Notes: generated from the letters alone by a model not told the origin. Positions 56,123 through 56,750 are shown, counted from the stretch's first letter. The stretch is 64,000 bases of DNA from Treponema sp. (GCA_017550685.1 JAFZOJ010000121.1:2046-66045), one strand, 5' to 3'. Translations and numbers: made by a program.

Positions 56123-56275
56123 TGTCATTGCCAGTCGTAGTTTACCCATGTCATTGCCGGTCTTAGTTTATCCATGTCATTGCCGGGCTTGACCCGGCAA
56201 TCTTTTTTTTGTTCCATGTCATTGCCAGTCGTAGTTTACCTATGTCATTGCCGGGCTTGACCCGGCAATCTTTTT
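56123..56275. repeat. family-1 array upstream of the GIY-YIG gene (five TGTCATTGCC units, two complete hairpins)
   Basis: Units start at 56123, 56149, 56175, 56217 and 56243. Units 3 and 5 read TGTCATTGCCGGGCTTGACCCGGCAATC. Confidence 0.9.
56175..56210 (+). terminator. probable intrinsic terminator of rel formed by a family-1 hairpin
   Basis: ATTGCCGGG-CTTGA-CCCGGCAAT followed by CTTTTTTTT. A second copy with TTTTT is at 56243..56275. Confidence 0.55.
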
Positions 56276-56313
56276 CCTTGACGACATTTCTTTTTACCCT
56301 TAAATTTATTTAT

Positions 56314-56601
56314 ATGAATTCATATTATGTTTATATACTTTCAAACTACACCAACTCTACTCTATATATTGGGGTCACCAATAATTTGAAAAAGAGATTA
56401 TATGAACATAAAACAAAAGTATATGAAGGATTCTCAAAAAAATATAATGTAGATAAACTTGTTTATTTTGAAGAAGTTTCAGATATCAAATCGGCAATTC
56501 AGAGGGAAAAGAATTTAAAGAAGTGGAAACGTGAATGGAAAGATGCGTTAATAAAAAAAGCAAACCCTGAATTTAATGATTTAAGCATGGATTTTGAATG
56601 A
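56314..56601 (+). CDS. stand-alone GIY-YIG (URI-domain) nuclease, COG2827-like
   Basis: ORF 56209..56601 trimmed to ATG 56314, because the upstream part is translated repeat. 95 aa: YYVYILSNYTNSTLYIGVTNNLKKRLYEH...REKNLKKWKREWK. TTGACG-N17-TAAATT ends 7 nt before the ATG. Confidence 0.8.
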   Translation: MNSYYVYILSNYTNSTLYIGVTNNLKKRLYEHKTKVYEGFSKKYNVDKLVYFEEVSDIKSAIQREKNLKKWKREWKDALIKKANPEFNDLSMDFE

Positions 56602-56603
56602 AA

Positions 56604-56750
56604 GATTGTCGGGTCAAGCCCGACAATGACACATTACTCAAATACGACAATGACACATTACTCAAATACGACAATGACACATTACTCAAATACGACAATA
56701 AAACATTATGCAAATGAAACAATGATAAATTATCCAAATGCGACAATGGC
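56604..56750. repeat. family-1 hairpin plus about five decaying 24-bp half-units downstream of the GIY-YIG gene
   Basis: GATTGTCGGGTCAAGCCCGACAATGACA (56604..56631). CATTACTCAAATACGACAATGACA follows three times, then two degenerate units. Confidence 0.9.

Follow-up and report, generated by a model that had tools for sequence, protein, structure and literature searches.

A GIY-YIG nuclease gene between inverted hairpin repeats in Treponema: a probable variant of the Ssn cassette

In a 64,000-nucleotide stretch of Treponema sp. DNA (GCA_017550685.1 JAFZOJ010000121.1:2046-66045; the window), a small nuclease gene lies between relA and a DUF6171 gene, bracketed by hairpin repeats. A reading made from the sequence alone (the sequence-only reading) had singled out this stand-alone 95-aa GIY-YIG open reading frame (ORF; 56314-56601) between inverted hairpin arrays and had proposed that the nuclease mobilises, targets or maintains the hairpins. 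Judged by its sequence, the window gene is a member of the Ssn family of single-stranded DNA (ssDNA) nucleases with a variant motif. The region as a whole is very probably an Ssn cassette, an endonuclease gene flanked by its cognate hairpins, which here represent a Treponema variant of the NTS/SRM/dRS3 motif.

The Pfam GIY-YIG model (PF01541) matched residues 4-75 of the 95-aa protein (E 2e-17). A mechanical ORF list placed the start at a TTG at 56209; because the homologs are all about 95 aa long and begin M..YYVYIL, we take the ATG at 56314 as the real start. The gene is the single GIY-YIG copy in the window, and its G+C content (GC) is 27%, compared with 45-50% in neighbouring genes and 43% in the whole window. 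AlphaFold predicted one compact domain (pLDDT 87.5) with a beta-beta-alpha-beta-alpha-alpha core. The best matches of this model among solved structures were UPF0213 BH0048 (1zg2), Slx1 and the UvrC N-terminal nuclease domain, with no Ssn structure among the matches. Sequence similarity to UPF0213 was marginal (E 0.002), an NCBIfam search returned no specific model, and the PADLOC defence-system library gave only marginal matches to the GIY-YIG motif. Two further ORFs nearby, 56626-56973 (+, 115 aa) and 56573-56869 (-, 98 aa), are translations of the 24-bp repeat array (MTHYSNTTMTHYSNTT...) and not genes.

The sequence-only reading had also credited the gene with its own promoter. A consensus-level match, TTGACG-17-TAAATT, is present 7 nt before the ATG, but three sites of this type were found in the region when 2.4 were expected by chance. 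No Shine-Dalgarno sequence is visible before the ssn ATG. Three of four other Treponema ssn copies carry a CTTGnC-like box upstream, in a poor alignment that does not settle its conservation.

Upstream of the gene, five units begin with TGTCATTGCC (56123, 56149, 56175, 56217 and 56243). Two are complete hairpins, which fold as 28-nt ssDNA at -10.9 kcal/mol (z = -5.0), and none of the three truncated units folds. Downstream, a full hairpin is followed by about five 24-bp units, two of them perfect and the last three decaying (TRF period 24, 5.3 copies). Both arrays had been described in outline from the sequence alone, and the folding and repeat analyses agree. The hairpins read TGTCATT on the left and ...AATGACA on the right, so that inverted complete hairpins bracket the gene as terminal inverted repeats, and the truncated arrays extend outward on both sides. 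Behind each cassette hairpin comes a T-run in its own reading direction, a terminator-like geometry. The nearest proteins and the adjoining genes assign the window to an uncultured Treponema of gut or rumen metagenomes. Several metagenome contigs carry this locus with an identical protein and different arrays: L002/L004 have one downstream unit instead of five, and in the strain with the single downstream unit the upstream side consists of three truncated units and a single complete hairpin. Because the protein is identical while the arrays differ between strains, the arrays change faster than the ssn gene.

The motif is also scattered through the rest of the window. The 28-mer was found nine times at up to three mismatches, compared with none in 100 shuffles. 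A strict detector, requiring GTC[AG][TC] plus a stem and nothing more, identified 16 complete hairpins, of which 13 lie outside the cassette. These 13 are all intergenic except one, probably a chance match, in a window of which gene-like ORFs cover 93%. Together with three additional imperfect or chimeric copies (27934, 53193 and 59628), they make the earlier figure of about 18 elsewhere a slight overcount. The features are listed in Table 1.

Table 1. Position and strand of the ssn cassette features and of hairpin groups elsewhere in the window
Feature	Position	Strand	Remark
Two truncated units (TGTCATTGCC head, half left arm, filler), 5' of the first complete hairpin	56123..56174	+	26-bp period
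Complete left hairpin 1, TGTCATTGCCGGGCTTGACCCGGCAATC, then T8	56175..56202	+	terminator-like for relA transcripts
Truncated unit 5' of the second complete hairpin	56217..56242	+	68-bp duplication, 1.9 copies
Complete left hairpin 2	56243..56270	+	inner left end of cassette
Promoter-like site TTGACG-17-TAAATT	56278..56306	+	consensus match; 7 nt before ATG
ssn gene, 95-aa single-domain GIY-YIG nuclease assigned to the Ssn family	56314..56601	+	homology and fold
Complete right hairpin, inverted copy (TGTCATTGTCGGGCTTGACCCGACAATC on minus strand)	56604..56631	-	starts 3 nt past stop codon
Five truncated 24-bp units, plus-strand end CGACAATGACA	56632..56751	-	5' of right hairpin on minus (GTCAT-reading) strand
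Gene-less left hairpin, 14 bp, right hairpin	57023..57092		heads outward as in cassette; MITE-like
Hairpin cluster prfA/prmC: right type, chimeric unit, left type	53160..53251		
Right hairpin; next, a complete left hairpin preceded on its 5' side by two truncated 26-bp units	31010..31111		array architecture as in cassette; nuclease gene not nearby
Right and left hairpin pair between convergent genes	19668..19731		
Three tandem complete hairpins of a further subtype (GTCATGCTGAACTTGATTCAGCAT)	61342..61431	-	
Hairpin with a copy of the second repeat family (GGTCCCTGAGGCTCTCGAAGGG) in its loop	59628..59672	+	

Following the commonest hairpin sequence through the literature led from a Neisseria construct to the dRS3 repeats and from there to the Ssn family, described in 2025 (Chenal et al., Nat Commun 16:2388; PMC11893778). 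The statement that no system of this kind had been described is thereby overturned, the same analogies to RAYT/REP and IS200/IS605 having been drawn in that paper; our literature search found no follow-up Ssn papers. SsnA of N. meningitidis is a 94-aa single-domain GIY-YIG protein of CDD family cd10448 that binds the 28-nt NTS hairpin CGTCATTCCCGCGMAVGCGGGAATCYRG as ssDNA only and on one strand only, cuts about 3 bases upstream of the NTS motif, 5' of the GTCAT head, and is inactive on double-stranded DNA (dsDNA) (PMC11893778). The substitutions Y6A, Y17A and E64A each abolish cutting; binding depends most on the C after the palindrome and cutting most on the three bases before it (PMC11893778). 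Three further homologs cut their own motifs, which brings to four the members with shown binding and cutting of hairpin ssDNA; the meningococcal enzyme cuts incoming hairpin-bearing ssDNA and thereby lowers transformation by NTS-bearing DNA, the one role demonstrated to date (PMC11893778). In the survey reported there, the motif was near 71% of Ssn homologs and on both sides of 42%, and 81% of genomes with more than 200 motifs carried an ssn gene.

The window protein is 48% identical to the SsnA ortholog of N. gonorrhoeae (94 aa), without gaps over 89 residues (pairwise E 2e-30). By tblastn against a 7.3-Gb collection, the gonococcal match scored E 3e-20, below the threshold of E < 1e-10 applied in the paper. 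Tyr7, Tyr18 and Glu65 of the window protein are invariant in 27 relatives and align to Tyr6, Tyr17 and Glu64 of the meningococcal enzyme. We took the gonococcal protein as the SsnA ortholog from its 94-aa length, its residue numbering and its NTS flanks. It derives from NZ_CP119142.1 and NZ_CP119140.1 (L087; N. gonorrhoeae, about 2.17 Mb each), which are labelled plasmids and are evidently chromosomes. The gonococcal ssnA has no in-frame ATG at the expected position upstream of the conserved VYIL, where the codons read ATT ATA TGC ACG GTT, so that another start codon may be used or the gene may not be intact.

Relatives of the window protein were scanned in one genome per bacterial species, yielding 80 loci whose proteins are 53-79% identical to the query. 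They come from Treponema, Bacteroidota, Alpha- and Gammaproteobacteria (including a Rickettsia endosymbiont and Bradyrhizobium), Nitrospirota, Planctomycetota, Cyanobacteria, Chloroflexi, Omnitrophota, groups of the candidate phyla radiation and others. In nearly all of these loci, a hairpin of the form TGTCATyCC-stem-loop-stem-GGrATCCAG stands directly upstream and an inverted copy directly downstream. Hairpins were counted with the strict detector, a tolerant version (one mismatch, long loops) having been dropped at 245 shuffle matches versus 642 observed. Among the 81 homologs with both flanks, which come from more than 15 phyla, at least one correctly oriented hairpin lay within 200 bp of the gene in 64 (79%), and hairpins stood on both sides in 43 (53%). 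With each side taken by itself, an inward-facing hairpin was present upstream of 55 of 84 genes and an inverted one downstream of 55 of 82. Hairpin density reached 2.64 per kb within 200 bp of the gene compared with 0.156 per kb elsewhere in the same loci, a difference of about 17-fold, and 331 hairpins were observed across the loci compared with 20-27 in shuffles.

Two features that the detector did not select for recur in these hairpins: a T precedes GTC in 76%, and the palindrome leads directly into a C in 89%, with YAG next. Both match the published determinants of binding and cleavage and support the reading of the hairpins as cognate repeats. Of 329 hairpins, 288 have a TGTCAT head; the left arms take 126 different forms, and there are two main loops, GAAA and CTTGA. 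The hairpin structure and both ends are conserved and the stem sequence drifts. Many homologs are flanked by matches to the core of the Neisseria NTS consensus, GTCATTCCCGCGAAAGCGGGAATCCAG. No conserved partner gene was found among the loci, the only shared neighbouring ORFs being antisense artefacts of ssn. One Dehalococcoidales locus (L078 1-110 and 209-478) contains two tandem ssn copies, with a hairpin head CCATTCC rather than GTCATTCC, a variant missed by the strict detector and by the published pattern.

These data bear out the proposal that the nuclease is functionally tied to the hairpins that bracket it, in the manner of RAYT/REP and IS200/IS605: hairpins are concentrated near its homologs, and four family members cut hairpin ssDNA. 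Among the roles suggested from the sequence alone, targeting stands, by experiment in other species, and mobilisation is conjecture. Hairpins had further been expected beside other GIY-YIG paralogs, in genomes that carry the gene and at positions that vary between strains; the flanks counted above, the published 81% and the differing hairpin positions of related Treponema genomes accord with this.

The cassette shares with published Ssn loci (PMC11893778) a single-domain GIY-YIG protein of about 94 aa with Tyr, Tyr and Glu as catalytic residues, oriented GTCAT-head hairpins with a C after the palindrome, the dispersal of such hairpins in intergenic DNA, and the lack of a partner gene. It differs in its host, a spirochaete, a group not mentioned in the main text of that paper; in stems of ATTGCC, ATTGTC or ATTACC with a CTTGA loop, which fall outside the published search pattern; in a tail of ATCTTT instead of ATCYRG; and in hairpins that point inward, whereas those around the gonococcal gene point outward. 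Window hairpins 31085 and 57023 resemble Neisseria dRS3 in being ATTCCC-N-GGGAAT palindromes, with 11 bases between the half-sites versus 8 in dRS3. Intergenic arrays are likewise a feature of dRS3 and NIMEs, and short truncated units also occur beside gonococcal ssnA. NIME arrays consist of 50-150-bp units between dRS3 copies, whereas the window units are 21-26 bp long and represent the 5' half of the hairpin itself.

RAYT systems with their REP, BIME and REPIN elements also usually have one enzyme gene per genome, flanked by inverted hairpins that are recognised as ssDNA and occur in many dispersed copies. RAYTs are, however, HUH/Y1 enzymes with a covalent intermediate, whereas the window enzyme belongs to the hydrolytic GIY-YIG nucleases, and their REPs have GTAG or CGTC heads (PMC3733652) rather than TGTCAT. 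TnpA of IS200/IS605 recognises ssDNA hairpins strand-specifically and cuts at a short distance from them, as Ssn enzymes do, but it has another fold and chemistry, asymmetric ends and a defined target tetranucleotide, and transposition is not demonstrated for Ssn. I-TevI, Seg, UPF0213/YhbQ and Slx1 share the catalytic fold, UPF0213 BH0048 being the nearest solved structure; the homing enzymes among them (I-TevI, Seg) differ in having a separate DNA-binding domain and cutting dsDNA, and Slx1 in requiring Slx4 and cutting branched DNA.

By homology with the Neisseria and Wolbachia enzymes, we predict with high confidence that the window protein is a Mg2+-dependent nickase of the folded ssDNA hairpin that reads hairpin orientation. 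It would ignore dsDNA and RNA and bind the folded hairpin once the DNA becomes single-stranded, taking the orientation from the GTCAT head and from the C that directly follows the palindrome, and would nick the head strand about 3-4 nt 5' of TGTCAT. Because the complete hairpins point inward, the nicks are predicted at both outer edges of the cassette, on opposite strands, the positions at which the arrays of truncated units begin. Judged by the layout, repeated nicking and repair at the cut position probably produced the arrays as by-products. The left hairpins would probably stop relA transcripts and the right hairpin DUF6171 transcripts before ssn; because neighbouring transcription would be terminated in this way, ssn would depend on its own weak promoter-like site. 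In Treponema, the enzyme may cut incoming hairpin-bearing single strands, as in Neisseria, may spread the cassette together with its gene-less derivatives, or may do both. That an Ssn enzyme would spread the hairpins is plausible.

The polarity of the arrays is, in our view, the best hint of in vivo nicking at hairpin sites. A truncated unit consists of the head, 5-7 nt of the left arm and 8-16 nt of filler, with a period of 21-26. Wherever an array includes a complete hairpin, its truncated units are placed 5' of one such hairpin on the strand that reads GTCAT, in Treponema, UBP14, Nitrospirales and Alphaproteobacteria as well as beside gonococcal ssnA. The window contains three such polar arrays, at 56123-56270, 56604-56751 (-) and 31038-31111, the last with no nuclease gene nearby. 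The published Ssn cut site coincides with the boundary between array and complete hairpin. Tandem or truncated units are not mentioned in the main text of PMC11893778. A simple slippage mechanism for the arrays could not be derived from their sequences, nor could a specific repair pathway.

Several observations weigh against assigning the region to the Ssn system. The published SRM pattern, HGTCWYN(0-2)YYVSBRHN(0-5)WNVSBRGN(0-2)RNCYNB, matches only 31085-31115 and 57023-57053 in the window. The three hairpins that flank the gene fail it, with stems of ATTGCC or ATTGTC rather than ATTCCC and a compensating change in the other arm. Altering the stem sequence while keeping the structure abolishes the activity of meningococcal SsnA (PMC11893778), so the specificity of the window enzyme would have to differ from that of Neisseria. 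Moreover, a compensated base pair distinguishes the left hairpins (GCC) from the right one (GTC), and a single enzyme would have to accept both. The experimentally characterised Ssn members are all non-spirochaete (PMC11893778). Finally, the hairpins of gonococcal ssnA have the reverse orientation to those of the window cassette, so the geometry of outer-edge nicks would not be universal. The failure of the SRM pattern follows from the compensated stem change and from the pattern's fixed arm length, and is a limit of the search pattern and not of the family definition.

Related Treponema genomes, with RelA 87-89% identical, keep the order prfA-prmC-relA-DUF6171-abfA. In those with an empty site (L088-L091, L097) the relA-DUF6171 gap is 0, 31 or 69 bp without ssn, so that the window's whole 640-bp spacer represents an insertion or was gained specifically in this lineage. 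The ssn cassette was probably gained at the relA|DUF6171 site, its loss from the relatives being less likely, and the GC of the gene (27%, compared with 43% in the window) also speaks for gain. At the DUF6171|abfA junction, the relatives have 0 bp and the window 123 bp, which hold the gene-less pair 57023-57092; L088 and L091 lack this pair at the orthologous site. Between prfA and prmC, three relatives have an empty spacer of 23-25 bp, and the window and one other relative have hairpin pairs. Downstream of relA lies a variable spot: in place of DUF6171, other relatives (L095/L096 3507-4336, L092 4827-7253, L094 3852-4772) have a KilA-N protein, a resolvase-containing segment or a transglutaminase-like gene.

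An explanation that would add to the Ssn cassette rather than exclude it is that the cassette is an autonomous insertion sequence (IS)-like element mobilised by Ssn, with the gene-less pairs as derivatives akin to MITEs (miniature inverted-repeat transposable elements) and the arrays as footprints. It would account for the absence of the cassette, of the 57023-57092 pair and of the prfA|prmC hairpins from orthologous Treponema sites. It also fits the limits of the conserved DNA: similarity across phyla, and between two copies in one genome, covers about 365 bp (-45 to +45 relative to the gene) and ends where the hairpins have their outer edges, and two Dehalococcoidales cassettes with unrelated flanks share 90% identity. 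The proteins are 55-70% identical across phyla, and ssn GC lies below that of the locus in 83 of 84 cases, by a mean of 10 points, while tracking host GC (r = 0.85). Among close hairpin pairs, the heads-out arrangement is commonest (39 versus 17, 10 and 11 for the others). One Nitrospirales locus (L069 5450-13283, OZ242257.1) holds at least seven copies of an inverted-repeat element of about 100 bp, a MITE-like family, tipped with Ssn-type hairpins of different subtypes and having a 45-bp interior that is an imperfect palindrome. The discussion of PMC11893778 raised the same idea, noting that NTS-ssnA-NTS resembles an insertion sequence and likening it to IS200/IS605 and RAYT/REP/BIME.

Other results count against such an element. 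Comparison with the empty sites of L088 and L091 showed no visible target-site duplication, and unexplained extra bases, CTTG and GCCTCC, at the two junctions. GIY-YIG enzymes hydrolyse DNA, and strand joining is known for none of them. The subtype often differs between left and right hairpins, three Bradyrhizobium species share one conserved ssn locus in its entirety, the 64-kb window contains a single ssn copy, and host recombination or transformation would give the same pattern of presence and absence. We therefore consider autonomous mobility possible but doubtful. Its fullest form, in which hairpin-ssn-hairpin mobilises itself through a hydrolytic GIY-YIG ssDNA nickase, the heads-out pairs are its MITEs, and the polar arrays are the footprint of repeated nicks, made at the published cut site and then mis-repaired, appears to us somewhat less likely still.

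We give very little credence to the view that the hairpins are ordinary intrinsic terminators or REP-like elements, in whose repeat-rich spacer a functionally unlinked nuclease gene happened to land. The window hairpins do carry T-runs and score as terminator-like, stand directly after stop codons and lie mostly far from the single nuclease gene, but the same oriented motif brackets homologs in more than 15 phyla, for the most part with an ATCCAG tail in place of T-runs, and direct hairpin binding and cutting has been shown for the four family members. It is equally improbable that the gene encodes a free-standing GIY-YIG homing endonuclease that cuts dsDNA at or near the hairpin and is copied in by repair: the fold, a weak match to a group I intron endonuclease model (20 bits, cut-off 56) and the presence/absence pattern would suit it, but Pfam and the AlphaFold model reveal no DNA-binding domain outside the 95-aa catalytic core, the characterised relatives leave dsDNA untouched, a search of a phage collection returned zero homologs, and the gene is intergenic in a chromosome rather than inside an intron or a conserved gene.

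Under the Ssn cassette reading, the enzyme-repeat pairing, its breadth across bacteria and the ssDNA-specific cutting are already published, and as a discovery the window adds little, being a slightly divergent member of the 2025 family. The stem variants missed by the search motif, the Treponema empty sites, the gene-less pairs and the polar arrays go beyond the main text of PMC11893778. They provide material on the spread of the repeats and on the enzyme's role beyond Neisseria, questions left by that paper, including natural filled and empty sites among close relatives and strain-level changes of array length around an identical protein. The stem variant predicts a different cleavage specificity, which may interest collectors of Ssn enzymes as ssDNA tools.

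Right-type hairpins lie 0-3 nt past the upstream stop codon, or overlap it (TAG|ATTGTC, TAA|GATTGTC), at 19660-19670, 31000-31012, 53155-53162 and 56598-56606, and the same placement recurs in relatives L091, L094 and L097. This suggests either a preferred landing position or selection for placement at gene 3' ends.

The window also contains a second intergenic repeat family, GGTCCCTGAGGCTCTCGAAGGGCCC, at 54171-54270, 27960-28030, 57100-57130 and 59636-59661. Its form GGTCCCTGAGGCTCTCGAAGGG was considered as a hairpin and rejected, since it folds no better than shuffles. Between prmC and relA, this family forms a polar array like those of the hairpins, in which three 21-bp truncated units, each of GGTCCCTGAGG and filler, stand 5' of a single complete unit. 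In relatives it occurs at L088 4801-4831, L094 988-1033 and L097 3795-3863. It is found together with Ssn-type hairpins, in one case within a hairpin loop, and shows polymorphism among related genomes.

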